From IMG/VR virus record IMGVR_UViG_3300025141_000031: 64,000 bases of DNA, one strand, 5' to 3'. The notes under the pieces are model-generated. The model ran no database searches, had not been told where the DNA came from, and saw only the letters and a list, made by a program, of their open reading frames with translations. Made by a program: the position numbers and the translations under genes. Positions 3,381 through 61,924 of the stretch are shown one piece after another; the first letter of the stretch is position 1; each line of letters opens with the position of its first letter. The DNA comes from a virus.

Positions 3381-3716
3381 TTAATCTTTATCTGGAGTAT
3401 GTCCCAGAGTAACTTTTTTTATTGATTTACCTTTTGATGTACCATCTGCAGTCAAATCTACCGGTACTATATTATCTGGTGTCGTGTACCAATACTGTAC
3501 CTGACATCCTTTCTTTGTATGTTTGATAATTAATCCTCTATCAGCTTCACCTTCTCCAACTTTTGCTTTAAGTACAATTTCTTCATCACCGTATTCCATA
3601 TCAATAGATCTCTTACCTGCTCTTTTTGGTGAATCGCTATCATGCCAATCTTTAGGTATTTCTATAAATCCTGATCCTTTAACTAGGTCTGCTAATTTAA
3701 TTTTCTTTTCGGCCAT
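3381..3716 (-). CDS. Hypothetical protein (IKLADLVK leader-like N-terminus)
   Basis: ORF coupled to the upstream gene. Confidence 0.65.
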   Translation of the reverse strand: MAEKKIKLADLVKGSGFIEIPKDWHDSDSPKRAGKRSIDMEYGDEEIVLKAKVGEGEADRGLIIKHTKKGCQVQYWYTTPDNIVPVDLTADGTSKGKSIKKVTLGHTPDKD

Positions 3717-4564
3717 TATATTTTCTCCAATTGATTATCTTGTTTTGTTAACATATCACCTGGCCTATATGCTTTACTTTGGTCTCCATTAGTTACTGAA
3801 TATCTAACTTCTCCTTTAGATGGCAATTCAATTACAATTCCTTTAGAGCCAAAATGTGGACAACTAGGATCTTTATCATTTACAATATCTCCTGTTCCAA
3901 ATGTATACCCACCTTCATGATCAACTCCTTCTTCAGCAACTTTCATAGATGCTTTGGCTGCTTTAATTTTATCTTTAGCAGATTTGATTGTATCTTTAAC
4001 AGCTGCTTTAGCCGCCTTCTCTTTTGATTTAGCAGCATCTATCTCTGATTTTGCTGCTTCCATTTCTGCATCTACTTCTTCAGCACTAACTTCTGATAAA
4101 GGATTATGTTTCATTTTTATCATGTTTCTTTCTGATGGTAATGTACCTAGAAAGCTTTCTTTAATTAAATCTTTTAGTTTCATATTTTTTCCTCTTGGGT
4201 TATAATGATCGGATATACTTGGTCCTTCCTCTGATTTTTCATCTTCTTCCTCTTCTACTTCTTCTTCTTCATCTTCTGGTTCTTTATCTGCTGGAGCTTC
4301 ATCTCCACTATGTAATGTTTCCATTCCTTTGTTATAAGTTGCTAAATCCACTTTATTACCTTGTATATTTAAGAATTCTACTTCTGGATATGAAAATTGA
4401 ATCATTTCTCCGTTTTCATCCATTCCGAATCCTACTGTTGGATCTTCTATATCATCTGCATCCGTAAGCGTTAAAAATCTACCAGATACATATACTTTAA
4501 CTGGGACTCCTGTTAATACAAATTGTCCTAGTATTATATTATTAAATATTTTTATTCCTGCCAT
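3716..4564 (-). CDS. Hypothetical protein with acidic linker, coiled coil and possible internal start (MKLKDLIKE at 4183)
   Basis: AAGGAG before 4564, AGAGG before in-frame ATG at 4183. Confidence 0.7.
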   Translation of the reverse strand: MAGIKIFNNIILGQFVLTGVPVKVYVSGRFLTLTDADDIEDPTVGFGMDENGEMIQFSYPEVEFLNIQGNKVDLATYNKGMETLHSGDEAPADKEPEDEEEEVEEEEDEKSEEGPSISDHYNPRGKNMKLKDLIKESFLGTLPSERNMIKMKHNPLSEVSAEEVDAEMEAAKSEIDAAKSKEKAAKAAVKDTIKSAKDKIKAAKASMKVAEEGVDHEGGYTFGTGDIVNDKDPSCPHFGSKGIVIELPSKGEVRYSVTNGDQSKAYRPGDMLTKQDNQLEKI

Positions 4565-4575
4565 ATTTATCTCCT

Positions 4576-5433
4576 TTAAAATGGATCATTCCAATTAACA
4601 ACACCTTTCTTTAATAATTGAGCTAATTTAGGCATACCTCCTGATGGTTCATCTGTTTGTGGCATAAATCCTCTTTTTGGAGCTCCTGCAGCAGGTTTTG
4701 CTGAATTTTGCATTATTTCTATTTGTTGCCAAATATAATTTGCTGCTTCTGTTGCATCTAAGTTTTTTATTTTTCTAAATTGTTTTAAGGTTCTTAAAGC
4801 TTTGACTCCTGTTGCACCTGAATTAATCATTCCTATAATATCTGATTTAACTGTGCCTTCAGAAGCTTTTAATAAATTTGTTCCACTTACATGTTTTTGT
4901 GGTATTTCGCCCATAATAGCGGCTATAGCTGTTTGAACTGCTTTAAGTCCGTGAATTGGGTCCATACCTGGAAATTGTAGATCGGCACATTTCATAGTTG
5001 CTTGAGCATTGAATGCATATACTTGGCTCCATCTATGATGTCCATCAATTACCCATTTTCCATTTAATGTAATAATTGGCGCCATAATAACAACATTTTG
5101 TCCTTTAAGATAATCTTTCAAAAGAGCTGAATCTTTTACTAGTGGCCAATTCAATGATTTACCTACATCAATTTCATTTTGAGTTGGACGTAAATCTTTA
5201 ACTGCAACTGTTACTTCTTTAATATTAATCTTATCATCATCTATATCACCATCTTGTAATCCTGCCTTTAATGCTGCTCGTACCTTTTCATCTCCTGCAT
5301 CATCACTCATAGTTGTTACAAATGCTTCATATTTTTTTCCAAGATTTTGCATAACGATTTCTTGACCAGGCGTTAATTCCGCTTCGGTCAATATTTCTTT
5401 AACTATTTTTGATAGTAATGTATGTGATTGCAT
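4576..5433 (-). CDS. ParB/Srx-like domain protein
   Basis: DLRPTQ...APIIT...VIDGHHRW motif. Confidence 0.7.
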   Translation of the reverse strand: MQSHTLLSKIVKEILTEAELTPGQEIVMQNLGKKYEAFVTTMSDDAGDEKVRAALKAGLQDGDIDDDKINIKEVTVAVKDLRPTQNEIDVGKSLNWPLVKDSALLKDYLKGQNVVIMAPIITLNGKWVIDGHHRWSQVYAFNAQATMKCADLQFPGMDPIHGLKAVQTAIAAIMGEIPQKHVSGTNLLKASEGTVKSDIIGMINSGATGVKALRTLKQFRKIKNLDATEAANYIWQQIEIMQNSAKPAAGAPKRGFMPQTDEPSGGMPKLAQLLKKGVVNWNDPF

Positions 5434-5842: not shown

Positions 5843-7141
5843 TTACACATTTCTACCATTTTCAAATACATGTTTTACCGTTGGAAATCTTAAACTAATT
5901 CCACCTTCTTGGTTTTTAGTTTCTTCAAAATACTGAACGGTAATTGTTTTACCTATTAATAACTCTGGATTGGCTTCGTATTTAATTCTTTGTTCTTGGT
6001 TCCAACCTGAACCAACTGCAACCTCATGTCCTTTATGAGTAATATAAGCTTGAGCTAACATTGGTATTACAACTTCTTTTCCATCTCTGATAATTCTATG
6101 ATCATCAAAGTCAACACTATTAACTACATATTCAGCATCATGGAATTTTTTACATTTTAATAAGTTTTTAGTTCTCTTACCCTCATACCCAACATCTTTT
6201 CTTAACATAATTCCTTCATAACCTTTACGTTGAGCTTCTTCAATTTGATAACCAAGGTTGGTTTCATCTTGAACAATGTTTTGTTCTAATACACTTAATG
6301 TATTATCAACTCCCCAACAATTTGTAATTGCCTTTTTAATTCTATCTGATAATTTTGTATCACTTACTTTGTTATCAAACTCTTCCAATGTTAAATAATC
6401 AAATACAATATAGTTTGGATTGGCAATAGTATGATCTTTTCTTTTGATTTGTTTCATTATACCTTGGAAATCTTCATTACCATCTTTATCCATTAAACAA
6501 ATTTCACCATCTAGAACAAAATTACCTGGCATCTTTGCTACATCATCTAATACCTTTTGTAAGGTTGTAAATTCATTTCCTTGTCTTGAATAAGCAATTA
6601 CTGAATCTTCTTCTTTTCTAATGATACATCTTACACCGTCTAATTTTCTAGATGATAACCATGTTTCATTTTTAAAGTCACAAAATTTAGGTTCATATTT
6701 AGTTGCTAAAGCTACATCAAATGTTGGAATTAAATTTGGAATAACTTTATTAATAACTGATTCAGAAGCTCTAATTTCTAGATTTCTATCTATAATAGAA
6801 AGAATTAAATTTTTGAATTGCATATGATTTGTAATAAAACCATTTACTAATGCAATTGCATCATGACCTGTATAATCTCTATTTACTAATGCATCTAATA
6901 AATCCCATAAATTAGTATAAGGTTGATCTAGATCACAAATTTGTATATTCTTTTCAATTGATTTAGAAGTAACATAATATTTTAGATATGGATTATATGT
7001 ATAATATAATGCATTTTCTATATAATCATTACCTTTATATGATTTAATTATTTCTTTCTTTGCGATTAGAGAACTTGTATTCTTCATTTCTTGAACAAAT
7101 AATTGAAGTTCTTCTAGGTGTAATTTCTGGTTCTTTTTCAT
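5843..7141 (-). CDS. lig: ATP-dependent DNA ligase
   Basis: Motif I KLDGVRC, LDGEI, VFD, EGIMLR, LKCK, and OB-fold end SLRFP. Confidence 0.95.
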   Translation of the reverse strand: MKKNQKLHLEELQLFVQEMKNTSSLIAKKEIIKSYKGNDYIENALYYTYNPYLKYYVTSKSIEKNIQICDLDQPYTNLWDLLDALVNRDYTGHDAIALVNGFITNHMQFKNLILSIIDRNLEIRASESVINKVIPNLIPTFDVALATKYEPKFCDFKNETWLSSRKLDGVRCIIRKEEDSVIAYSRQGNEFTTLQKVLDDVAKMPGNFVLDGEICLMDKDGNEDFQGIMKQIKRKDHTIANPNYIVFDYLTLEEFDNKVSDTKLSDRIKKAITNCWGVDNTLSVLEQNIVQDETNLGYQIEEAQRKGYEGIMLRKDVGYEGKRTKNLLKCKKFHDAEYVVNSVDFDDHRIIRDGKEVVIPMLAQAYITHKGHEVAVGSGWNQEQRIKYEANPELLIGKTITVQYFEETKNQEGGISLRFPTVKHVFENGRNV

Positions 7142-7168
7142 CTTTTATATCTAATTTTTAATTATATA

Positions 7169-7200
7169 TAAAGATAAGAAAAAAATCTCATATATCCTAA
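7169..7200 (-). promoter_or_regulatory. Bacteroidota-type -33/-7 promoter (TTAG-N20-TATCTTTA)
   Basis: Spacing matches TTTG-N19-21-TAnnTTTG; near-identical copies at 53134-53165 and 53230-53261. Confidence 0.75.
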
Positions 7201-7228
7201 TTTTTTGGCAGCTTTTTTTCAGAAAAGT

Positions 7229-8443
7229 TTATCTTGTTCCCCAAGTTGGAAGTGCTGTACCTTCTGTTCCAAATGTTCCATGATTCCCATTTCCTGATAA
7301 ATCTTCAGCAGTAGTTCCACTACCCTCATCTAATTTCCAATATCCTACAAGATTACTATTACCTGTATGGTCATAACTAGTTCCGCCATTATATACTTCA
7401 TTTGCAAAAGTACCATCTTCATCTTTTTCTTCCTTATAAATAGCTACTTCGCTAAGACTACAAGCCCAACCTTGAGAGTATGGACTATCAGGGAGTCCAT
7501 TAAAATCAGTACGAGATCCGAAGTAAACATTACTTGTATCATTAACAGTATCAGTCCAACTTGGTTGCCAATTTGCAGTTCCCATACCATTCTCATTTCC
7601 AGTACCACTATCGGCTCCATCTTTATAGATTTCTTTTCCATTTATCCATATCCGAACATGCCTATCACCACCAATGGATGAATGGTCATCACCACCATAT
7701 GTATATAACATATGATACCAATTACCTGCTTCCATTCCGTGACCAGTTTCAACACCATCATTATGTGTGTTACCATCCTTTCCTGCTGCTCCTACACCCA
7801 CATGTACTTTAGTAGCAGATTTAATACCAAAATGAAATCTACCATTAGTTTCCGACCTTCTACCTAAAGCTTGTTGAAATCCACCAATTTCATTTGGTTT
7901 AATCCAATAAGAAACAGTAAATCCGTGATTAAGTCCAGTTCCTGTACCATCATAATTATCAGGATTAAATGTAGTTGCTACATAATCGTCTGGACCGCCA
8001 TCACCAGCAAATGTTAATACATACTTAACTGCTGCAGCTGTGCCAACACCTCCTCCTTGTTGATTTATTCTATCAACTTGTCTTGATTGTGCTAATTTGT
8101 ATAATCGCACTTTTTCTGACATTGGTAAATTAATAATCTTCTCATGGTTAGAAAATGCTTGCCATGTAAATGATTGTTTATAAATAATTCTTGTATCAAT
8201 TGGTTTAGATGGTATTTGTGCTTCTTGTTCTCTTAAAAGTTGTTGTTGTAACCGTAGTTCATATTCTTGCGCTTCACGTTGAGCTATTTCATCTTGTTGT
8301 TCTTGTAATCGCTGCTGTTCTAATTCTCGCTCATGATGCCAGTCTTCCCATTTACGAGCTTCAAGAGCTTTTTCTTCGGCAAGTAATCTTTCAGCTTCTA
8401 GTCGATCGGCCTTTTCTTTAGCTTTTTGTTTAAATGATTTCAT
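7229..8443 (-). CDS. Coiled-coil + LamG/ConA-like jelly-roll protein
   Basis: FTVSYWIKP, WYHMLYTY, IWING, LSEVAIY, LVGYWKLDEGSGTTAEDLSGNGNHG. Confidence 0.85.
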   Translation of the reverse strand: MKSFKQKAKEKADRLEAERLLAEEKALEARKWEDWHHERELEQQRLQEQQDEIAQREAQEYELRLQQQLLREQEAQIPSKPIDTRIIYKQSFTWQAFSNHEKIINLPMSEKVRLYKLAQSRQVDRINQQGGGVGTAAAVKYVLTFAGDGGPDDYVATTFNPDNYDGTGTGLNHGFTVSYWIKPNEIGGFQQALGRRSETNGRFHFGIKSATKVHVGVGAAGKDGNTHNDGVETGHGMEAGNWYHMLYTYGGDDHSSIGGDRHVRIWINGKEIYKDGADSGTGNENGMGTANWQPSWTDTVNDTSNVYFGSRTDFNGLPDSPYSQGWACSLSEVAIYKEEKDEDGTFANEVYNGGTSYDHTGNSNLVGYWKLDEGSGTTAEDLSGNGNHGTFGTEGTALPTWGTR

Positions 8444-8446
8444 AAC

Positions 8447-8953
8447 TTATAGAAATGTTTGTATTTTATTGATGATTGGAGGTGGTATTTTTTGATCATG
8501 TTTACCTATTTCCATTCTCTGATCTGGTAATACGTCTTCTGTGGGAGCTTCTCCAAGTACAAGTTCTTTATATTCTTCTGGTCCTAAATCACCATAAGTA
8601 TCTTTAACAGTTAGTCCTGACATATCCCAAGGTCCCCAATGTCCTATATCAGTCATCTTTTTTGCAGCTTCTTCTGGAGTATAATAATGACATTCGTTAG
8701 GATCTATTCTACCTAATAAATAATAAATATCTTTTGGTAATTCTTGTTTCCTATCATTTGAGTGATCTAAAACTTTATCTTTATGTTCTACCCAACAATG
8801 CCCAAATCTATTTCCTTCTAATGCACCTTGTCCTGAAACCATACCATGTACTAATTTAACATTCTTTTCACCAAAGAAATTAAAAATAAGCCTGCCGCCT
8901 GCTTGATAGCAATCACCTTTTCCTTCTGTTAATAATTGTTTTAGTTTTATCAT
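8447..8953 (-). CDS. MIKLKQLLTE-leader protein with papain/transglutaminase-like Cys-His-Asp domain
   Basis: GDCYQ...GHCWVE...VLD. Confidence 0.6.
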   Translation of the reverse strand: MIKLKQLLTEGKGDCYQAGGRLIFNFFGEKNVKLVHGMVSGQGALEGNRFGHCWVEHKDKVLDHSNDRKQELPKDIYYLLGRIDPNECHYYTPEEAAKKMTDIGHWGPWDMSGLTVKDTYGDLGPEEYKELVLGEAPTEDVLPDQRMEIGKHDQKIPPPIINKIQTFL

Positions 8954-9309
8954 ACCTTATCAATTACCTTTAATTTATTAGCTGGTATTGGTTTATTAGT
9001 ATAAAAAGCTGAATCTTCTACTTCTAAATCTGATCCTGGATGTAATCCCATATCCTTTTTAAGATCAATACCTTTCAAATCAACTTGTAAAATATAAAAT
9101 GGTTCATACTTATCATAATGTGCCACATGTACTGCATATGAATGTGCTTCTGTTTTATCTCTAAAGAAATATATTTCATCACTAGAATAGTATTTAGATA
9201 ATTTAGGATTCAATCCGTGTTTATTAATAGAACCCATTATCCTACCTGGTGCTGCATGATATCCTATATCAAATCTTGCTTCTGTTAATAATTGTTTTAG
9301 TTTAATCAT
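8950..9309 (-). CDS. MIKLKQLLTE-leader protein with ADP-ribosyltransferase-fold (Tpt1/KptA-like) domain
   Basis: GYHA...I.KHGL.P...IYFF...A..YA...ILQVDL...KPIP pattern. Confidence 0.55.
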   Translation of the reverse strand: MIKLKQLLTEARFDIGYHAAPGRIMGSINKHGLNPKLSKYYSSDEIYFFRDKTEAHSYAVHVAHYDKYEPFYILQVDLKGIDLKKDMGLHPGSDLEVEDSAFYTNKPIPANKLKVIDKV

Positions 9310-9313
9310 GATC

Positions 9314-9541
9314 TTAATATCCAGTCCAATTATTCTTTTTCATCATATCATTAAACTTTTTATGATACTTTTTGTCTATCCTATCTTCTACATAAGATAT
9401 TAGTTTATTGTAGTTAGGCCATTTGAATATAGTCACTTCGGTTTTATTATTTGGTACAATTTTTTTAATTTCTGCATCGATCTGATCTAACTCTAATGCT
9501 GGTACAATACCCTCGTTTAATATTTGTTTTAATTTAATCAT
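9314..9541 (-). CDS. MIKLKQILNE-leader small protein
   Basis: Shared leader, ATGA coupling. Confidence 0.7.
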   Translation of the reverse strand: MIKLKQILNEGIVPALELDQIDAEIKKIVPNNKTEVTIFKWPNYNKLISYVEDRIDKKYHKKFNDMMKKNNWTGY

Positions 9542-10092
9542 AAATCCAGCTCCTCTATTTCTGGGTCTTCTTCAACGTATCGGTCTGAGTCTAAATCCTT
9601 TGCATATTTTCTATCTACAAATTGTTCTTGTCCTACTGGATCATATATATTACCTTTTTTATCTACTAACCAATAATGTGGAATATATTTCCAAGCTTCT
9701 GAATACTTACTATTTTCAATCCAGGACTCTCTTTCTTTAGCATTATTCCAATTACCACCATCATCTAGAAATTCTATTTTCATTTCTTGAGTAAAATCTT
9801 TTTTACCTGATACTACTTTATCTGCTCTAAAATATCCTTGTTCTTTGTTTGGAAATGGACTTTTTAATTCTATACCATATTTGTTTTTTGCAAAAGACAT
9901 AATATCTAATGCAGCTGGACCACAACCGTCTCGTCTACAATAATATTTGTACATTTCTTGTCCAAACTTTGGATTCCCAATATGATCTAGATTATAGCTC
10001 GAGCCTCCTTTTTTTGTATGTTCTTTCCAAGCATCTATTACCTCTTCAGGTTTTGGAGTTATTGATTCTAATATTTGTTTTAGTTTAATCAT
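9538..10092 (-). CDS. MIKLKQILE-leader protein with papain/transglutaminase-like domain
   Basis: Start moved to 10092 (leader, ATGA overlap); DGCGPAA...HYWLVD...IYDP. Confidence 0.6.
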   Translation of the reverse strand: MIKLKQILESITPKPEEVIDAWKEHTKKGGSSYNLDHIGNPKFGQEMYKYYCRRDGCGPAALDIMSFAKNKYGIELKSPFPNKEQGYFRADKVVSGKKDFTQEMKIEFLDDGGNWNNAKERESWIENSKYSEAWKYIPHYWLVDKKGNIYDPVGQEQFVDRKYAKDLDSDRYVEEDPEIEELDL

Positions 10093-11267
10093 ATATACTT
10101 CTTCCAATTCTTTTCTGCTCTTTCAGCTTCTATTTCATACGGATTATTTTCATATCCATGTTCACCGTGTTTTTTACGTTTCTTTGGATCTTGTAATGAA
10201 TGTGTATATTCATGTAGTAGAGATCGAATAATATGTTCTTCATTATTCATATTAGGATAATAAATAAATATCTTATTTTCTTCATCATCGTATTGTGCTA
10301 TTGAAGACTCACTTTCTTCTCCTGTTGAACCTGGGATTCCACTTAGTCTAGCATATATGTCTTTATGTAATTCTACTATTGGTGCTGCAATTTGATACTT
10401 ACTCTTACCTAAATCATTTACTATTTGAGGATATACTCTATCTACTATATCTTGTATTATATTTTTAGACATGCCTTCTAATAATATAGCTCTTATTTTA
10501 GGACTTTTAATATCTTGTAAAATTGTTTTTACTACTGTAAAGTCTGGTATATGTCCTTTTCCAAATATATGATCAGCTTCTGGAAATTGTAATTGAGTAT
10601 AATCTCCTCCTTCAAACCATGGCTCAGGTTTTCCAGCTAATTTACCTAAATGTCTTTTCTTCCCACCACGGATAAATCCTGTATCAGGTTCTCCTGCATC
10701 TGCTCCATATGTCGATGATGAACTTCCTTCTTTAATTAATTTCGTAATAGATTTAACAGCTGGATATCGATTTAACATATTATTTACAGCAGCAATATTT
10801 TTATTACTATCGTCCATAAAATAAACTGTATCATATCCTTTCTTAATTTGTTGTTCTATCCAATCAGCTTTTAATTGTGGATTTGCACTACCTAATGGAA
10901 CTACATATGCATCTATACCTACTGTCTTTAAGAAACTAGAAACAGGTGCACCAAGTCTTCTCGCAGTTAATATAGTTACCTTTCTGGTTCCTCTTGCTGC
11001 TTTTTGTGCTTTATCTAACTGTTTCCTTAATAAATCAGCATTTTGTTTTATTAATCTCGGATTTCTAATTTTCCTATCAAAATCTTTAAAATCAAAATCT
11101 TCACCTGGTCTAGGTTTGTAAACTGCAAATTGGGCAGGGTCTAATTTTTTTACTACTCTTCCTGCTCGTGTAACATACACCCATGCATCTGACTTTGCTA
11201 TTGTATCATCAAAATCAAATACACTTAATACTTTTCTTTCTTGTATTAAAGGCGTTAGTCTTAGCAT
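10089..11267 (-). CDS. HAD phosphatase + zincin metallopeptidase fusion (MLRLTPLIQE leader)
   Basis: FDFDDT, ILTAR, K and MDDS HAD motifs; HEYTH...NPYEIEA zincin motif. Confidence 0.75.
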   Translation of the reverse strand: MLRLTPLIQERKVLSVFDFDDTIAKSDAWVYVTRAGRVVKKLDPAQFAVYKPRPGEDFDFKDFDRKIRNPRLIKQNADLLRKQLDKAQKAARGTRKVTILTARRLGAPVSSFLKTVGIDAYVVPLGSANPQLKADWIEQQIKKGYDTVYFMDDSNKNIAAVNNMLNRYPAVKSITKLIKEGSSSSTYGADAGEPDTGFIRGGKKRHLGKLAGKPEPWFEGGDYTQLQFPEADHIFGKGHIPDFTVVKTILQDIKSPKIRAILLEGMSKNIIQDIVDRVYPQIVNDLGKSKYQIAAPIVELHKDIYARLSGIPGSTGEESESSIAQYDDEENKIFIYYPNMNNEEHIIRSLLHEYTHSLQDPKKRKKHGEHGYENNPYEIEAERAEKNWKKYI

Positions 11268-11905
11268 CCTACTTCATCCTCTGGTAATTCTTGTATATCA
11301 TTAGATTCTAGTAAAGTATATGAAAACGAATTACCATGTATTTCTCTTGCTGATTGACAAATATCTAAAAATTCATGCCAATCATCATTATCTGCAATTA
11401 CTTGACATCCTGCTGAATATTTACCAACTCTTATAGATTTTCCACCTGCTTTTGCTGTGGCTCTATGTATATTGATTCCGAATAAACCTGTGTCACAAGT
11501 TGATTCATCTAAATCATAATTGTTGTCACGGTCATTATCTCTATAAACTGTAACATTTTCTTTTTGTCCTAATGCTAAATACTTACCTCCATGTAATCTA
11601 AGTTTATGAGATCTTCTGTATTGTCCAGGTTTTAGGATAGCACATCCCTTTTCTTTTATCCACGGATTCTCCATCCATGCAGTTCCTGGATCAGTTGTAC
11701 AATCATAACATCCGTAATGCCATTCGCCATCTACTTTATATGAAATTGTAATTTTATCATCAAATGCATTTGTAACTCTACCTTTTGTTGCATTGTTTCT
11801 AACACCTACAATGTTTACATCGTAGCCTTTATTGTTAGAGTCTTCGAACCATTTGTAGCCTTTGGCTTTTACAGCTGATTCAATTTGTTCTCTTATGTAA
11901 GACAT
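11261..11905 (-). CDS. L,D-transpeptidase (YkuD)-like murein enzyme
   Basis: TTDPG...GINIHRA...YSAGCQV His/Cys motif; TAAGGAG RBS. Confidence 0.7.
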   Translation of the reverse strand: MSYIREQIESAVKAKGYKWFEDSNNKGYDVNIVGVRNNATKGRVTNAFDDKITISYKVDGEWHYGCYDCTTDPGTAWMENPWIKEKGCAILKPGQYRRSHKLRLHGGKYLALGQKENVTVYRDNDRDNNYDLDESTCDTGLFGINIHRATAKAGGKSIRVGKYSAGCQVIADNDDWHEFLDICQSAREIHGNSFSYTLLESNDIQELPEDEVGC

Positions 11906-11945
11906 ATTTTTCTCCTTAATTGTTTATTATTCTATATATAAATAT

Positions 11946-12509
11946 CTAGTAATGATTAATTGGTGGCGTAATTGGTAACACAATTTGCACTACTCCATTG
12001 TATATATTATATGCTGGGTCATTACAACAAGCTCCATTATTCCACCCTCCTGTAAGACAATCTCCTATTACATTCATACTAATTGATAAATTATCTGGAG
12101 TACATGTTGGGCCTACAGTTACTCTAAATCTCATAGTAAATGGTCCAGTTGATGCCGTTCCCCAATCTGGATTGAATCCTGTATTTACAAATCTCCATCC
12201 AGGTCCAAAATTTAACCCACTTGGATATGTATTTTGTAAATCCCATAACCAATATCCTGTTGAACCACCTGGATTACCTGGAGCTATGATAGGTTGTAGG
12301 TTAGTCCACCCTGCTCCTAAGTTAATTTGAAAAGCAATTATCCAATTTATATTTAATTGAGTAAATGTACCTAATGTATAATTAACTGTGACAACTTGTC
12401 CTGGTGTATAAGGTCCTACCGGGTTTATCCAAAATGATTGATTAGATACGCATTGTGAATTAGCATTTAAACTAAATAATAAACATAATATGAATAATAA
12501 CTTTTTCAT
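11946..12509 (-). CDS. Secreted beta-rich protein ending PITPPINHY
   Basis: Signal peptide MKKLLFILCLLFSLNANS|Q. Confidence 0.75.
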   Translation of the reverse strand: MKKLLFILCLLFSLNANSQCVSNQSFWINPVGPYTPGQVVTVNYTLGTFTQLNINWIIAFQINLGAGWTNLQPIIAPGNPGGSTGYWLWDLQNTYPSGLNFGPGWRFVNTGFNPDWGTASTGPFTMRFRVTVGPTCTPDNLSISMNVIGDCLTGGWNNGACCNDPAYNIYNGVVQIVLPITPPINHY

Positions 12510-13036
12510 CTTATTAAACTAACTTGTCCTGTATAATGTTGATTATGTGTTCGTACTGAATAAGTATATATTCCTATCTGGCAGTTCTTACCATCCCATG
12601 GTTCATTACTTGTAGTTTCATATACTTTCTCTCCCCACCTATTATATATGATTAGTAATTTTATTTCATTTCCATCTGCGCCATGTACATAAAATGTTTC
12701 ATTATGATTATCACCATTTGGAGTAAATGAATTAGGTATAAAGATCTGCAGATATGGACAATCTTTTATTATAACTTCATGATAAGAAGTATCTCCTTCA
12801 CAACCAAACCTAGTAGTATAAACTGATATAATATATGTGCCTATAGAATCTGGCCATTGTACTGTAATAGAATTTCCTTGATTATATATGATATCACCGT
12901 CTGAAATGTCCCAATAATATACTTTATCAGCATCATAACTTACTTGATAATTTTGTGGTATGATATCACCACAATTGGTATAAGTTTCCTGCGCTAATAA
13001 ATGAAAGGGTAGTAATATGAATACCCACCATCTCAT
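12506..13036 (-). CDS. PKD-like + T9SS type-B sorting domain (gliding motility-associated CTD) protein
   Basis: Signal peptide; FIPNSFTPNGDNHNETF...IYNRWGEKVY...WDG...GIYTY...GQVSLIR. Confidence 0.9.
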   Translation of the reverse strand: MRWWVFILLPFHLLAQETYTNCGDIIPQNYQVSYDADKVYYWDISDGDIIYNQGNSITVQWPDSIGTYIISVYTTRFGCEGDTSYHEVIIKDCPYLQIFIPNSFTPNGDNHNETFYVHGADGNEIKLLIIYNRWGEKVYETTSNEPWDGKNCQIGIYTYSVRTHNQHYTGQVSLIR

Positions 13037-13608
13037 TAATAATGTTGTATTGGTCCTGTAACTGGTCCGTTATTTACTGTAACATTAATAGTTGTATTAC
13101 AGCCAGCCATTGAATAAGTTAATACGTAATTTCCTACACCAGCTGAAGATGGTTGAAATGTATTTGCTACTACACCTGTTCCAGACCAAGTACCTCCTGC
13201 AGGATTACCTACTAATGGAGTTGTTGGGTCACCAGCACAAAATGGTCCAATTGGATTACCAGATAAATCTAATACATATACATCTATTAGTACTGGAGCT
13301 CCAGGACAACCTGCTGCATTAGATTCAATAACTTCTACTGCATTTGGATAAAGACCACTAACTCCACCCCAATCTACTGTAATAGAATTTGAACCTTGTC
13401 CAGTTTGTAATGCTCCACCACCACCTGTAATTGTCCATTGATAAGTTGATGTAGGAGTATTAGTTACAAAATATTGTTCCCCTAATGCATTTACACATAC
13501 TGTATCTGGGTTAATTGTTGTTTGACCAAATGTAAATATAGTCGTTGCCATCATTATCATTGTGATAAAGAAGGTCAATAATACTTGTTTGTTTTCTTTG
13601 TAATTCAT
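13036..13608 (-). CDS. Secreted PKD-like protein ending PVTGPIQHY
   Basis: Start moved to 13608 (AGGAG RBS); signal peptide; YQWTITGG...GQGSNSITVDW; PAGGTWSGTGV...F.PS.AGVG. Confidence 0.8.
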   Translation of the reverse strand: MNYKENKQVLLTFFITMIMMATTIFTFGQTTINPDTVCVNALGEQYFVTNTPTSTYQWTITGGGGALQTGQGSNSITVDWGGVSGLYPNAVEVIESNAAGCPGAPVLIDVYVLDLSGNPIGPFCAGDPTTPLVGNPAGGTWSGTGVVANTFQPSSAGVGNYVLTYSMAGCNTTINVTVNNGPVTGPIQHY

Positions 13609-13633
13609 AACTTTTCTCCTTTTATATAAATAT

Positions 13634-13879
13634 CTAATTTTGTACTCTAACCCTAAGCTTTTTAATTTTATCAAGGAATTCTTCTACAGTATAATCCTTT
13701 CCCATATCATCTAATATAACAATATGTTCTAATACATCTGGAGCTTCTTTAATGATACGCTGTAGCCGTTCAAATCCTGTACCTGCCCAAAATACTTTAA
13801 ATGATTGTTCTCCTAATAAATAATTTTCATTCATTAGATCGTGTTGTTCATACCCTGATGGTAATATAAAGTATTGCAT
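13634..13879 (-). CDS. Hypothetical protein
   Basis: ORF in operon. Confidence 0.6.
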   Translation of the reverse strand: MQYFILPSGYEQHDLMNENYLLGEQSFKVFWAGTGFERLQRIIKEAPDVLEHIVILDDMGKDYTVEEFLDKIKKLRVRVQN

Positions 13880-19070: not shown

Positions 19071-19513
19071 TCTCCATTAAATATTTTATAGTTAACATTA
19101 TTTCTATTTAATTCTTTAATTACATCCCAATATAAAATTGTATATGGCGGATGGGTTTCATGCTTTCTTGATAAATCATCAATAAATAAACATTCAGGTT
19201 CTGTTACGTATGATAATTTATCCATTGATCTATTTACTACTATGATAGACTTATATTCAAAATTATTTTTATCTAACCAGTCTTTTGTAATACTATATGC
19301 ATCTTCAAAAGGCCTTGCAGTTAAAAAATGAATTTCGTATTCGGTTGATAATTCTTTTAGTGCTTCTTTTGCTCCATCTAAAACACGATCTTTCATTATC
19401 TCTTCTCTAGAGAATATTTTATTCCAATCAGGAACTCCATTATCTGTAAACCTTTGGACTCTTTCCCAATGATTATTTATTGTACTGTCTATATCACAAA
19501 ATAATTTTTTCAT
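19055..19513 (-). CDS. HAD-family (5'(3')-nucleotidase-like) phosphatase
   Basis: CDIDST, FLTAR, TKDWL, FIDD. Confidence 0.8.
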   Translation of the reverse strand: MKKLFCDIDSTINNHWERVQRFTDNGVPDWNKIFSREEIMKDRVLDGAKEALKELSTEYEIHFLTARPFEDAYSITKDWLDKNNFEYKSIIVVNRSMDKLSYVTEPECLFIDDLSRKHETHPPYTILYWDVIKELNRNNVNYKIFNGDWKAI

Positions 19514-20378
19514 TTTTATAATAGTTTTTTAATTCTTGAATAAATTCGTTATAAACATTAGTAGATGTAGAATAAGTAAATATCTGATAGTATAAAGAAT
19601 CAGAATTTATACCATACAACTGAAATTTAGTTGCAATGTCGTTTGGGATAGAACTTTTATTTACTGTAATTACAGGACATGTTTTTTCTCCCACTATCTT
19701 ATCAGTTCCTAATACATTAACTAGTTTAGAAGAGTTCTGTACTATTTTACTTCGCAATGATTCTAAATCAAAATCTTGTAGAGTTTTTTTAAGATGCTTA
19801 AATAAGTGTATTGGAGCAGTAGTAGGAAGCTGATGCTTATATGAATAACTTAAATAATTAGAAAGACTCAAATATGAGAATTTAGAATCATTAGCTAATA
19901 AATCGGTATGGTCTTTATGTACTCCCACAATTGATAATCCTGGATAGGAACCTAATAGTTTGTTACTACATGTAATAAATATCTTAGTATTGTCTGGTAA
20001 ATCATAGAAAGGAAAAGAACTAATGGCATCAACAATACAACCTTCTTTAGTAAAGATGTTACTGTTAGAGGTCTCTAACTGACAAAACATTTCAATAGTT
20101 TCTGACCTTGATGATAAGTACACATCAACAAGCTCTTTCCATCTGGATTTGAACTTACCTTCATTTCCTATCAGTTCTATAATTTTACTACAAGAACGTA
20201 TAACTGCTTCTATACCAACTGTACCACTTCCTGGTATAAAGAGTATATGGTAATCATCTAAATCAAAAGTTGATTTTAACAAAGCATCTACCTCTCTATA
20301 AAGGTTGAAGAATTCTGCATCTCTATGAGAGTAATTTAGAGATAACTTAGACGTTATATGGGTATTAGGACCGAACAT
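19494..20378 (-). CDS. Class V PLP aminotransferase (PhnW/AGT-like, compact)
   Basis: MFGP, GSGTVGIEA, ETS, VDAISSF, SNKLLGSYPGL, PTT. Confidence 0.8.
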   Translation of the reverse strand: MFGPNTHITSKLSLNYSHRDAEFFNLYREVDALLKSTFDLDDYHILFIPGSGTVGIEAVIRSCSKIIELIGNEGKFKSRWKELVDVYLSSRSETIEMFCQLETSNSNIFTKEGCIVDAISSFPFYDLPDNTKIFITCSNKLLGSYPGLSIVGVHKDHTDLLANDSKFSYLSLSNYLSYSYKHQLPTTAPIHLFKHLKKTLQDFDLESLRSKIVQNSSKLVNVLGTDKIVGEKTCPVITVNKSSIPNDIATKFQLYGINSDSLYYQIFTYSTSTNVYNEFIQELKNYYKNEKIIL

Positions 20379-50562: not shown

Positions 50563-51336
50563 TTATACCATTCGTTCTGTATCATATGCTATAATATGAT
50601 CTCTACCTGTCATATTATAACCATGTTTTGCTACCATTTCAAATACTTTAGGATACATTTCAAGTAATGTTTCTCTATTATCTCCTGCAGGCATTATATA
50701 TGTTTTATCTTTAGGAGCTCCTATCAATGTTCTAAAATTTTCTATTTCTTCAAGATTTTCTTCTGTTCCATCCCATACTGGTTTGTAATGATAATCTTTA
50801 TGAAACATTATCATTTGCTTCATTGCGTCAAGATTTAATCTTTTCTTATTATGAGTATCAATAAATCTTTGATCTACCACTCTCATTCCTGGAGTCATTA
50901 TTCCTAATTTTGGACAACTATTTGCAAATTTAGGACTTAAACTAATTAAATCAATTGGATAATCTGTTTCTACAAAATGACTACCTTCAGTTTCAATTGT
51001 AATAATAATTCCTCTTTTATGTGCAAAATGTGTTAACTCATTGACCAATGCTGGATGCATTGTTGGTGATCCGCCTGTTAACATCATTTCTTTAATTTGT
51101 GGGTTTTCATCATAAATGTTAATTACATCATTAAAGGTAAGCTTTCCTTTTTCTGGATGTATTGATGTATACCAACTGTCACACCAACCTCCTTCTCCAA
51201 ACCAACATCTATGAGTACATCCTGTTGTTCTAACACAAACAGTTGGCATTCCAATCCTACTTCCTTCTGATTGTACGCACCTGTATAATTCTAATACAGG
51301 TAATACTTTATTATAATCTTTTATTCTTTTATTCAC
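50563..51336 (-). CDS. queE: 7-carboxy-7-deazaguanine synthase (radical SAM)
   Basis: VQSEG..IG.P...RTTGC, CxxxC-x7-CD, LTGG.P, IETEG, SLSPK. Confidence 0.9.
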   Translation of the reverse strand: MNKRIKDYNKVLPVLELYRCVQSEGSRIGMPTVCVRTTGCTHRCWFGEGGWCDSWYTSIHPEKGKLTFNDVINIYDENPQIKEMMLTGGSPTMHPALVNELTHFAHKRGIIITIETEGSHFVETDYPIDLISLSPKFANSCPKLGIMTPGMRVVDQRFIDTHNKKRLNLDAMKQMIMFHKDYHYKPVWDGTEENLEEIENFRTLIGAPKDKTYIMPAGDNRETLLEMYPKVFEMVAKHGYNMTGRDHIIAYDTERMV

Positions 51337-60259: not shown

Positions 60260-60859
60260 TTATCTTAATAAATCTAATAATGCTTTTGCGGCTTCATACT
60301 GTTCATCATTAGTTCCATCTATTGTAGATCTTAAATCATCATATGCATCTATAAGTTTCTCATTATTTGGATTATTATATATATCATCATAATAATCACC
60401 TAATTCATCTGTAATATCATCAGTCATATTTGTGTTGTCATCGCCTGCACCTGAATATATTGTAGCTACTACATCATAAAATTCTTCATCCGTTTCAAGA
60501 TTTCTAGCTCCTGTTGATGAAGATCTGTCATAATTAGCTTCACTGTCATTTGCATTAAACTGGATGAAAACATTATGGATATCTTTATCGAAATCAAAAT
60601 CCATTCCTACTCCTGCTGATCTTACTTCATCAGGTATTATTTTATCAAAGACAGTTATGTCATCTAAATATTTATTAAATGTCATTTTAAGTTGTTTGTC
60701 AGACGTTATTTCCACATTAGTCATCCCTAATTGTTTTAGTTTAGCATCTGCTTGTACTATTGGTAAATATGTTTCTGCATCATTTTCTGTTAATAATGTA
60801 AAATCATTGCTTCTAGTTTTACCTTCAAACAATTGTTTATATTTTTTTCCTAAATTCAT
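60260..60859 (-). CDS. Acidic protein with 25-aa MNLGKKYKQLFEGK...LLTE leader
   Basis: Shared leader. Confidence 0.75.
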   Translation of the reverse strand: MNLGKKYKQLFEGKTRSNDFTLLTENDAETYLPIVQADAKLKQLGMTNVEITSDKQLKMTFNKYLDDITVFDKIIPDEVRSAGVGMDFDFDKDIHNVFIQFNANDSEANYDRSSSTGARNLETDEEFYDVVATIYSGAGDDNTNMTDDITDELGDYYDDIYNNPNNEKLIDAYDDLRSTIDGTNDEQYEAAKALLDLLR

Positions 60860-61563
60860 TTTGTTCCCTCTTCAAATCTATACATAATACTTGTTGGTTG
60901 TTCTTCTGAGAATTTTTTCATTACAGCAATTGTAGCATTATATTGATCTTTTGGTACTCCATCAAAACCTGAATCTTTTAATTCTTCCATTTCTTTAGAT
61001 GAAGCTACCTTGTTGCCTTTTCTAATTGCCGGAAATGCAAATATATTTATTCTGTTAATCTCATCGACCATATCTTTACCAGCCTTTGCTCCGTGAGCTA
61101 TTATAGCAAGTTGTTTTTTGAATTTTTCATCAGCCTCAGAAGAGCCTGAACTAGTTGGTTTATAATTTTCCAATTCTCCTTCAGCCCATCCTTCAAGTTC
61201 TGCTGCTACTTGTTCAGCTCCTCCATATACGCCAGATGCATCTAATGCGGCTGCTGAATCTTTATCAAATTCAAATGTAATATAATCTGGTTCTGATTTA
61301 TCTATTTTAGCTACTAAGAATTCTGGAAGTCCTTCTCCTGCCACTTCAGTATCTTTTCTATATCCTCCACCAACTTCTCCTTGGGATGTTGGAATCTGAA
61401 CTTCTGTTCCATCTTCTGCAGCAAATAAAGTTTCAAAATCAAGTGCATCTAAATCTATTACATCTTCCCAATCCATTTCATATTGAAATTCTTTAAGTAA
61501 CTTTGCATCATTTGATCTAACTTTACCTTCAAATAATTGTTTATATTTTTTACCTAAGTTCAT
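60856..61563 (-). CDS. Acidic protein with the same leader (...LLKE)
   Basis: Start moved to 61563 by leader identity. Confidence 0.75.
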   Translation of the reverse strand: MNLGKKYKQLFEGKVRSNDAKLLKEFQYEMDWEDVIDLDALDFETLFAAEDGTEVQIPTSQGEVGGGYRKDTEVAGEGLPEFLVAKIDKSEPDYITFEFDKDSAAALDASGVYGGAEQVAAELEGWAEGELENYKPTSSGSSEADEKFKKQLAIIAHGAKAGKDMVDEINRINIFAFPAIRKGNKVASSKEMEELKDSGFDGVPKDQYNATIAVMKKFSEEQPTSIMYRFEEGTK

Positions 61564-61565
61564 TT

Positions 61566-61868
61566 TTATCCTCTTTCTACTGTCCATTTAATAGCACCAT
61601 CAGGATTAATCTTTGCACCTGTTGCAATTAAATCAGCATTAGCTTGTCCAAGCTGTTTATTAATCCATCCTAATGTATATGCAGTCCAAGCTGGTGAATT
61701 ATCTGGATGTCTTGTATCATCAAGAAATCCAAAAAACTCTTCTTGGTCTAATTGAGCTACTTTCATTATGAAAGAATCATCTACTACTTTACCTTCTTTA
61801 AGTAACTTTGAATCATTGCTTCTAGTTTTACCTTCAAACAATTGTTTATATTTTTTTCCTAAATTCAT
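61566..61868 (-). CDS. Small protein with the same leader (...LLKE)
   Basis: Start moved to 61868 by leader identity. Confidence 0.75.
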   Translation of the reverse strand: MNLGKKYKQLFEGKTRSNDSKLLKEGKVVDDSFIMKVAQLDQEEFFGFLDDTRHPDNSPAWTAYTLGWINKQLGQANADLIATGAKINPDGAIKWTVERG

Positions 61869-61924
61869 TTTTACTTCTTTTTTTTTATAATATTCGCTAT
61901 ATCCCATATCATTAATAAATATGT

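Follow-up and report, generated by a model that had tools for sequence, protein, structure and literature searches.

Phage T4 has a class of internal and injected proteins that includes the anti-restriction protein IPI and the host-RNA-polymerase modifier Alt. In IPI, IPII, IPIII and Alt the mature parts are mutually unrelated, and each is preceded by a 10-residue capsid-targeting sequence (CTS) that is removed by the gp21 protease; ipII and ipIII, e.g., both start with MKTYQEFIAE↓A (here and below the arrow marks the boundary behind the last residue of a leader or motif). In this work we analyzed a 64,000-nucleotide stretch of viral DNA (IMG/VR record IMGVR_UViG_3300025141_000031; hereafter the window), in which five consecutive genes on the minus strand (8447-11267) start with a common leader, of consensus MIKLKxILxE, and differ in what follows it. 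This leader is likely a T4-type tag, i.e., a capsid-targeting and protease-cleaved sequence on a variable set of enzymes that would be packed in the head and delivered with the DNA.

The ten residues of the T4 CTS alone suffice for encapsidation; targeting depends chiefly on residues 4 and 7, and processing by gp21 on residues 8 and 10 (PMC9026906). The T-even internal proteins are a diverse set with the CTS as their only common part, and the CTS has been considered a possible general route by which T4-like phages load varied proteins (PMC3012670, PMC9026906), so that the concept of diverse proteins loaded by a CTS is already in print. T4 also packages and injects the ADP-ribosyltransferase Alt, and in the giant phages phiKZ and SPN3US a diverged homologue of gp21 processes many proteins of the head interior behind the Glu of a short motif (PMC9026906). 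What is specific to the locus described here is the MIKLKxILxE consensus, the enzyme-rich cargo and the clear fusion and fission of genes at cleavage-like joints. The consensus is without earlier mention in the searchable literature, where MIKLK retrieved unrelated epitope papers only, and it is very widely used in uncultured aquatic phages.

A leader shared by unrelated proteins

The genes of the array, from the upstream end, are the following:

10089-11267, minus strand: 392-aa cargo with three modules; leader MLRLTPLIQE, divergent
9538-10092, minus strand: 184-aa cargo (length from the ATG); leader MIKLKQILE
9314-9541, minus strand: 75-aa cargo; leader MIKLKQILNE
8950-9309, minus strand: 119-aa cargo; leader MIKLKQLLTE
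8447-8953, minus strand: 168-aa cargo; leader MIKLKQLLTE

At three of the four internal junctions the genes overlap by ATGA (10092/10089, 9541/9538 and 8953/8950), and the remaining junction is a 4-nt gap. A position-specific scoring matrix (PSSM) was built from the leaders of homologues and applied to every Met in the six frames of the window (1735 positions). Four leaders reached 34.2, 34.2, 27.9 and 19.7 bits, whereas the next-best Met scored 10.4 bits, and hence the shared leader is not due to chance. The leader DNA at 8924-8953 and 9280-9309 is identical at 29 of 30 nt; the other pairs of MIKLK leaders match at 24-25 of 30 nt, and the MLRL leader matches the others at 17-21 of 30. Behind the leader no relationship was detected between the bodies of the five proteins (best pairwise BLASTP E = 0.19), and when the family profiles of the 168-aa and 184-aa cargos were compared with hhalign just the 12 leader columns aligned. 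A first-pass annotation of the window, made from the letters alone, had described five consecutive, mostly ATGA-coupled genes with a common leader, two of them nearly identical over their first 30 nt, and unrelated bodies behind it, and all of this was borne out.

The leader is not confined to the window. In databases the 168-aa cargo has more than 100 homologues, and these, like the homologues of the 119-aa and 184-aa cargos, start nearly without exception with MIKLK[QDNT][IL]L.E. In a 50-sequence alignment M1, K3, L4, K5, L8 and E10 are each at least 90% conserved, and position 7 is I or L. Homologues of the 184-aa cargo start with MIKLK[DNQK]IL[LIMS]E (P0118-P0124 and P0127), and in a divergent subgroup with MIKLKDLLIE (P0126, P0129) or MISFKEFLIE (P0130). 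IMG/VR was then scanned with a degenerate DNA pattern for MIKLKxILxE; the counts are lower bounds and refer to the first 120 loci. At least 134 open reading frames (ORFs) in at least 120 loci, on more than 100 different contigs, carried the tag, nearly all of them starting a few codons after an upstream stop. Once the leaders were removed, the 126 ORFs with a length of 60 aa or more fell into at least 74 BLASTP body clusters, 54 of which were singletons. The annotation had suggested that the genome and its relatives be scanned with a leader model; the PSSM singled out four leaders in the window, and the DNA pattern showed a widespread tag in IMG/VR.

The leader is conserved at the protein level, not at the DNA level. 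Among 118 distinct instances from IMG/VR, the fixed residues are encoded by as many as 6 synonymous codons, and conservation stopped abruptly past Glu10, with no preferred residue at positions 11-12. Because of this synonymous variation and of the sharp end at Glu10, a nucleotide signal or a simple A/T-rich translation ramp is disfavoured. Some orthologues of the same cargos have other leaders that keep the T4-like ending, namely MRHIKIYEEFVNE↓A, MILSFSDFLNE↓A and MKHLKAYELYE[KR], the first being near the T4 sequence itself. The sole match to the 168-aa cargo among 50,697 deposited phage records was gp61 of the unrelated Mycobacterium phage Barnyard (L032 43310-43654; 36.6% identity, tblastn E 1e-18). 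This homologue starts with MSIPEATGDCY, without a leader, which argues that the domain existed first and that the tag was added to it.

When compared with the T4 CTS, the leader has the same layout: a 10-residue tag with hydrophobic residues at positions 4 and 7, I or L at position 8, Glu at position 10 and a small residue next, placed ahead of mutually unrelated mature parts. Four of the five window leaders fit this layout fully, and MLRLTPLIQE keeps L4, L7, I8 and E10. In T4 an E10D change abolishes processing but not targeting. The two systems differ in consensus (MIKLKxILxE here, MKTYQEFIAE in T4) and in cargo, since the T4 internal proteins are small and basic whereas most of the window cargos are enzyme-like. 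In contrast to T4, the window also has one gene with three modules joined by cleavage-like motifs, and its host is probably of a Bacteroidota type; the system is known here from sequence alone. With phiKZ and SPN3US, in which many of the protease-processed head proteins are reportedly ejected into the host, the common element would be the Glu-specific, gp21-type processing of many head-internal proteins. Those phages lie outside the T4-like lineage, and their propeptides are longer, end in another motif and do not share a 10-residue tag.

A further family of tagged proteins, with a P-loop body, links the leader to cultured marine T4-like phages. The protein starts with MIKLVDILTE↓GVYDPG in the leader-bearing IMG/VR record G001, with MIPFILKE↓GLYDPG in Pelagibacter phage HTVC008M (gp129) and with MKTFAELQE↓GVYDPN in Methylophilales phage Melnitz (gp118). 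The boundary and the [IL]xE↓G ending are the same in the three proteins, whereas the leaders of gp129 and gp118, which are annotated as hypothetical proteins, are of other sequence and 8-9 residues long. The neighbours of the P-loop cargo in HTVC008M (L167 103767-109412) also have short starts that end in hydrophobic-x-E, e.g., MLSFTGYSNLSE↓A and MYNDLLVE↓D, and judging from these N-termini HTVC008M may have its own set of tagged proteins.

The protease that such a tag needs is present in the lineage, as in T4. Peptidase_S77, the family of T4 gp21, was found in every leader-bearing IMG/VR record of 79% completeness or more (four records: G001, G004, G005 and G006), in agreement with the expectation that relatives should encode a gp21-like protease, and in 3 of 12 leader-bearing fragments, for which the summed completeness predicts 3.8. 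In G001 the protease gene (19364-20026) encodes an enzyme with 35% identity to T4 gp21 (E 3e-25), in which the His and Ser motifs, ELxHP and SSRGLGS, are retained. The gene belongs to a T4-like head module with portal, protease, scaffold and gp23-like capsid protein. Near the N-termini of the G001 capsid and scaffold proteins lie the motif sites LLNE↓A, LLE↓N, LIDE↓N and LLKE↓A. Two of them, LLE52↓N and LIDE62↓N of the capsid protein, lie 30 and 20 residues ahead of a VRR motif that aligns with T4 gp23, in which the cut LTE65↓A lies 33 residues ahead of VRR; the likeness of the G001 sites is a motif match only.

Cargo domains and the joints between modules

The largest protein of the array, of 392 aa, can be divided as follows:

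Residues 1-10, minus strand: leader MLRLTPLIQE, divergent
Residues 11-180, minus strand: HAD-type module, ends in KLIKE180↓G
Residues 181-264, minus strand: module B, function unassigned, ends in AILLE264↓G
Residues 265-392, minus strand: zincin-type (HExxH) module, with HEYTH at 352-356
10725-10742 (residues 176-181), minus strand: joint KLIKE↓G at the border of the HAD module and module B, resembling a prohead-protease site
10473-10490 (residues 260-265), minus strand: joint AILLE↓G at the border of module B and the zincin module

The HAD module has the motifs FDFDDT (17-22, with DxDxT at 18-22) and FMDDS (150-154, the acidic pair). Residues 9-164 gave a weak match to PHROG 415, a polynucleotide kinase (PNK) family (E 1.3e-4), and none of the Pfam HAD models reached E 0.1 against the protein. 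The HEYTH of the zincin module is conserved in two relatives, L001 and L003. The C-terminal part matched phrog_16532 (E 4.5e-5) and DUF3920 (E 1.1e-3, under the Pfam cut-off), an Atlas lead to IrrE/M78-like clusters scored only 0.85, and a PDB sequence search with the 392-aa protein returned chance-level matches only. Hence, of the HAD-plus-zincin assignment made in the annotation, the HAD motifs and the HExxH motif are present, and the zincin family match is weak.

The position of the two joints became clear from the relatives. In L001 (80% identical) the HExxH module is a gene of its own (11843-12262), whose leader (MIKLKDILLE↓G) ends precisely at the position of AILLE↓G in the alignment. 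In L003 (62% identical) the HAD module on the one hand and module B plus the zincin module on the other are encoded by two genes in reversed order, which start with the leaders MIKLKDILHE↓G and MISLKQILE↓G, respectively; the latter leader (gene 10001-10693) aligns on KLIKE↓G. By these alignments the leader ends double as inter-module joints, and genes are fused or split exactly there. Such a pattern would be expected if the motif is a protease site, because fusion at it would be harmless. Further evidence of module shuffling among leader genes is that the C-terminal piece of the L001 HAD protein (L001:9995-11086; DYHSKLSRGHKPDYYQLGTSEFKPF) reappears at the N-terminus of the 184-aa homologue P0125. 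In the comparison of cargo content that the annotation had proposed, the content varies freely between relatives, and modules are fused or split at [IL][ILV]xE↓G joints.

Another protein of the window has an internal element of this type. The 282-aa product of ORF 3716-4564 contains, at residues 128-136 (4157-4183, minus strand) and after a long acidic linker, the sequence MKLKDLIKE↓S, which looks like a once-separate leader gene fused in frame to an upstream module.

The 119-aa cargo has about 109 residues past its leader. Its AlphaFold model (predicted local distance difference test, pLDDT, 79.5) was compared with solved structures by Foldseek, and the best match was TkoKptA (9ldi; E 2.8e-5, template-modelling score 0.59 over 114 columns). 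All 13 PDB matches at E ≤ 1e-3 were to Tpt1/KptA proteins, and lower-ranked matches included TreX, cholera toxin, pertussis toxin and PARPs. The modelled body is of the ADP-ribosyltransferase (ART)-superfamily fold and of the Tpt1/KptA type (NAD-dependent 2'-phosphotransferases), without the Tpt1 N-terminal lobe; the ART-fold domain announced in the annotation is thereby confirmed at the fold level, and one of the window cargos is, like T4 Alt, an ART-fold protein. The residues H18, Y40/Y41, F48/F49, E54, E69 and D77 are invariant in the family.

For the 168-aa cargo (AlphaFold model, pLDDT 76.6), Foldseek gave no match at E ≤ 0.001, the best being E 0.11. With VIA-align the top matches were nearly all Cys-His-Asp papain/transglutaminase-like folds, at Z scores that are all below 8: 3c9q 5.8, LapG 5.0, SseI 4.4, SpvD 4.3 and protein-glutaminase 4.1, and also the C39 domain of ComA. 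C15, H52 and D63 are invariant in 50 sequences. We therefore assign the modelled body, with moderate confidence, to the papain/transglutaminase-like Cys-His-Asp domains. In the family of the 184-aa cargo C57 (within RDxCGPAA) and D151 are invariant and H139 is nearly so, which makes this protein a candidate Cys-His-Asp hydrolase. The annotation had called both proteins papain-like; for the 168-aa protein that call gained moderate fold support, and for the 184-aa protein the evidence consists of C57, H139 and D151.

Sequence searches contributed little to these assignments. Pfam returned nothing for four of the five cargos or for the whole 184-aa family, and PDB sequence searches with the 119-, 168- and 184-aa proteins and with the 184-aa family profile gave chance-level matches only. 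The 75-aa cargo is an orphan, with only one close cluster among 1.84 billion representatives. In the models of the 119-aa and 168-aa proteins the leader is disordered or a low-confidence helix, separate from the domain.

Neighbouring genes, other leader-like elements and lineage

The array is part of a densely packed string of genes that is headed by the following gene:

11261-11905, minus strand: endolysin-like gene (phrog_3000, E 2.3e-32; phrog_33083 'endolysin', E 1.4e-11)

This gene overlaps the gene for the 392-aa protein, the first leader gene, by 7 nt, and in L001 the order is the same, i.e., the endolysin-like gene and then the leader array. In T4 the gene e is likewise followed by ipIII and ipII (NC_000866 65416-66997). 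The endolysin-then-leader-genes order shared with T4 may be a conserved locus order or a coincidence.

Directly after the array lies a 404-aa gene (7229-8443, minus strand), which is also the conserved downstream neighbour of the array in L001. Its product has a Laminin_G_3/ConA-like domain (E 1.8e-10) and a Glu/Lys/Gln-rich N-terminal stretch that appears coiled-coil-like by eye, with LLAE at residues 20-23 and without a MIKLK leader. A search for terminators in 7000-12600 gave none. Three genes (11946-13674, minus strand) immediately precede the endolysin-like gene and encode proteins with N-terminal hydrophobic stretches that look like signal peptides by eye. One of them (12506-13036) has a CHU_C type IX secretion domain (E 4.5e-14), and another (13036-13674) has a PKD-like domain. 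Because a phage-encoded substrate of the type IX secretion system (T9SS), recognized by its CHU_C domain, adjoins the array, the host is probably a Bacteroidota-type bacterium.

Other leader-like starts were seen in the window. Three tandem genes at 60260-61907 (minus strand) share MNLGKKYKQLFEGK[TV]RSND..LL[TK]E and then diverge fully; this second leader family is 25 residues long and likewise ends in L-L-x-E. A 285-aa protein (4576-5433, minus strand) starts with MQSHTLLSKIVKEILTE↓A, maybe a longer leader ending in L-T-E. Over residues 64-171 it resembles phrog_2859, a family without assigned function, and the protein has a motif, KDLRPTQNEI, that is ParB-like by eye.

The window as a whole is AT-rich phage DNA (about 30% GC) with its genes in one long minus-strand string. 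It carries T4-type replication genes, listed as a family-B DNA polymerase (PolB), a UvsX-like recombinase, a DnaB-like helicase, ribonucleotide reductase, an ATP-dependent ligase and GroEL. A blastn search with window positions 8000-12000 gave no match among cultured phages, and an exact 39-mer from the window gave none among metagenome contigs.

A packaging tag or another role

The likeness to T4 suggests how the leader might work. In a first step it would bind the scaffolding core during prohead assembly, so that the tagged proteins become enclosed. The S77 (gp21-type) prohead protease would then cleave behind the Glu with which [IL]-[IL]-x-E ends, and the same protease could act on the 392-aa protein at KLIKE↓G and AILLE↓G, by which enzymes of the HAD, zincin, Cys-His-Asp and ADP-ribosyltransferase types would be freed inside the head. 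Finally, these enzymes would enter the host with the DNA and could act before any phage gene is expressed. Leader removal might also activate the enzymes, because three of the cargos have a catalytic Cys, His or Asp just 5-10 residues downstream of the cut. The annotation had proposed a modular address tag with interchangeable enzymes that act in host takeover or anti-defence. The discrete CTS-like tag, the unrelated cargos and the protease of the relatives speak for part of this proposal; packaging and injection are what we infer from them, and host takeover or anti-defence would be possible roles. Cassette swapping through the shared 5' DNA is plausible, given the 29/30-nt identity of two leaders and the rearrangements at the joints.

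Several observations weigh against a T4-type packaging tag. The leader array is placed amid replication and glycan genes, outside the head module. The fifth leader, MLRLTPLIQE, is degenerate and scored below 8 bits on the PSSM; its position matches that of MIKLKDILHE or MGINLKNIFKE, which precede the same HAD domain in relatives. The [IL]xE ending is short and occurs frequently in AT-rich, Lys/Glu-rich proteomes. The array is also unmarked by signals of expression: a scan of 7000-12600 for sigma-70-type promoters gave chance-level results, and the T4 late-promoter motif TATAAATA was found 21 times against 23.5 expected. A Shine-Dalgarno 5-mer core precedes 3 of the 6 genes of the array string against 12 of 70 elsewhere, a difference too weak to use. 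Lastly, the closest PolB among cultured phages, that of Microcystis phage Mel-JY01, is 43.7% identical, so that by its polymerase sequence (no more than 44% identical to that of any cultured phage) this phage is only distantly T4-like. As to the position of the array, a site outside the head module is normal for the lineage, because in the complete 159.6-kb relative G006 at least 10 leader-bearing genes are dispersed over 12-140 kb.

The same cleavable propeptide could also direct to the capsid proteins that serve the head itself, in core assembly, DNA condensation or head-internal chemistry, instead of injected effectors. T4 offers a parallel, since IPIII aids head morphogenesis and what IPII and IPIII do once ejected is not known (PMC9026906), and two of the mature window cargos, the 392-aa and 75-aa proteins, are basic (isoelectric point, pI, 9.2). 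However, two others are acidic (pI 5.1 and 5.5), four of the five are enzyme-like (HAD, zincin, Cys-His-Asp and ART), and cargo content varies freely between relatives, unlike that of assembly parts; moreover, T4 Alt and IPI are precedents for effectors that are ejected. We therefore regard a head-internal role as unlikely. Somewhat less probable still is that the leader is read by other machinery, as a recognition site for a modifying enzyme or as a degradation or localisation signal, or that it is an A/T-rich 5' ramp that aids non-Shine-Dalgarno initiation. The codons of MIKLK are A/T-rich and the probable Bacteroidota-type host, with the CHU_C T9SS domain encoded next door, would suit such an explanation, but G/C-containing codons are freely used at Leu4 and Leu8, and conservation acts on the amino acids. 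An invariant Glu10 with a sharp stop of conservation behind it fits a cleavage site and not a ramp, [IL][IL]xE↓G is also present at the internal module joints of a protein, to which initiation is irrelevant, and what the alternative leaders retain is only the T4-like end.

Two specific forms of tag were considered and rejected. The only radical-SAM-like gene of the window (50563-51249, recognized by its N-terminal motif), which might have pointed to a radical-SAM recognition tag, lies about 40 kb away and has deazaguanine-pathway-like neighbours, and for a Sec/Tat signal peptide the tag is too short and too charged. That the common start is merely left over, without function, from a local duplication or from gene conversion among neighbouring genes is strongly disfavoured, and we give it hardly any weight. 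Two adjacent leaders are indeed nearly the same at the DNA level, but the tag heads unrelated bodies from at least 74 clusters on more than 100 different contigs, it is scattered over 12-140 kb of the G006 genome, and its synonymous variation is heavy.

A T4-type, capsid-targeting and protease-cleaved tag thus accounts best for the leader. A broader reading, which we put forward tentatively and at somewhat less than even odds, is that MIKLKxILxE is a lineage-wide capsid address code with dozens of cargo families, whose modules are shuffled between single genes and polyproteins at the cutting motif of the protease. The cargo families seen are ART-fold, Cys-His-Asp, HAD/PNK-like and zincin proteins, together with Nudix-, exonuclease- and kinase-like ones recognized by eye only. 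The tags may also be alternatives for T4-style protein-packaging technology. Since the tag is short, sharply bounded and widespread, it could help to find new enzymes of host takeover and anti-defence, and the way in which modules fuse and split at cleavage-like joints suggests how such arsenals may be rearranged. If the tag loads the capsid, it marks the proteins that reach the host at the very start of infection by these uncultured phages, and if the lineage-wide code is true, one could read directly from sequence which proteins thousands of uncultured aquatic T4-like phages pre-load and inject.

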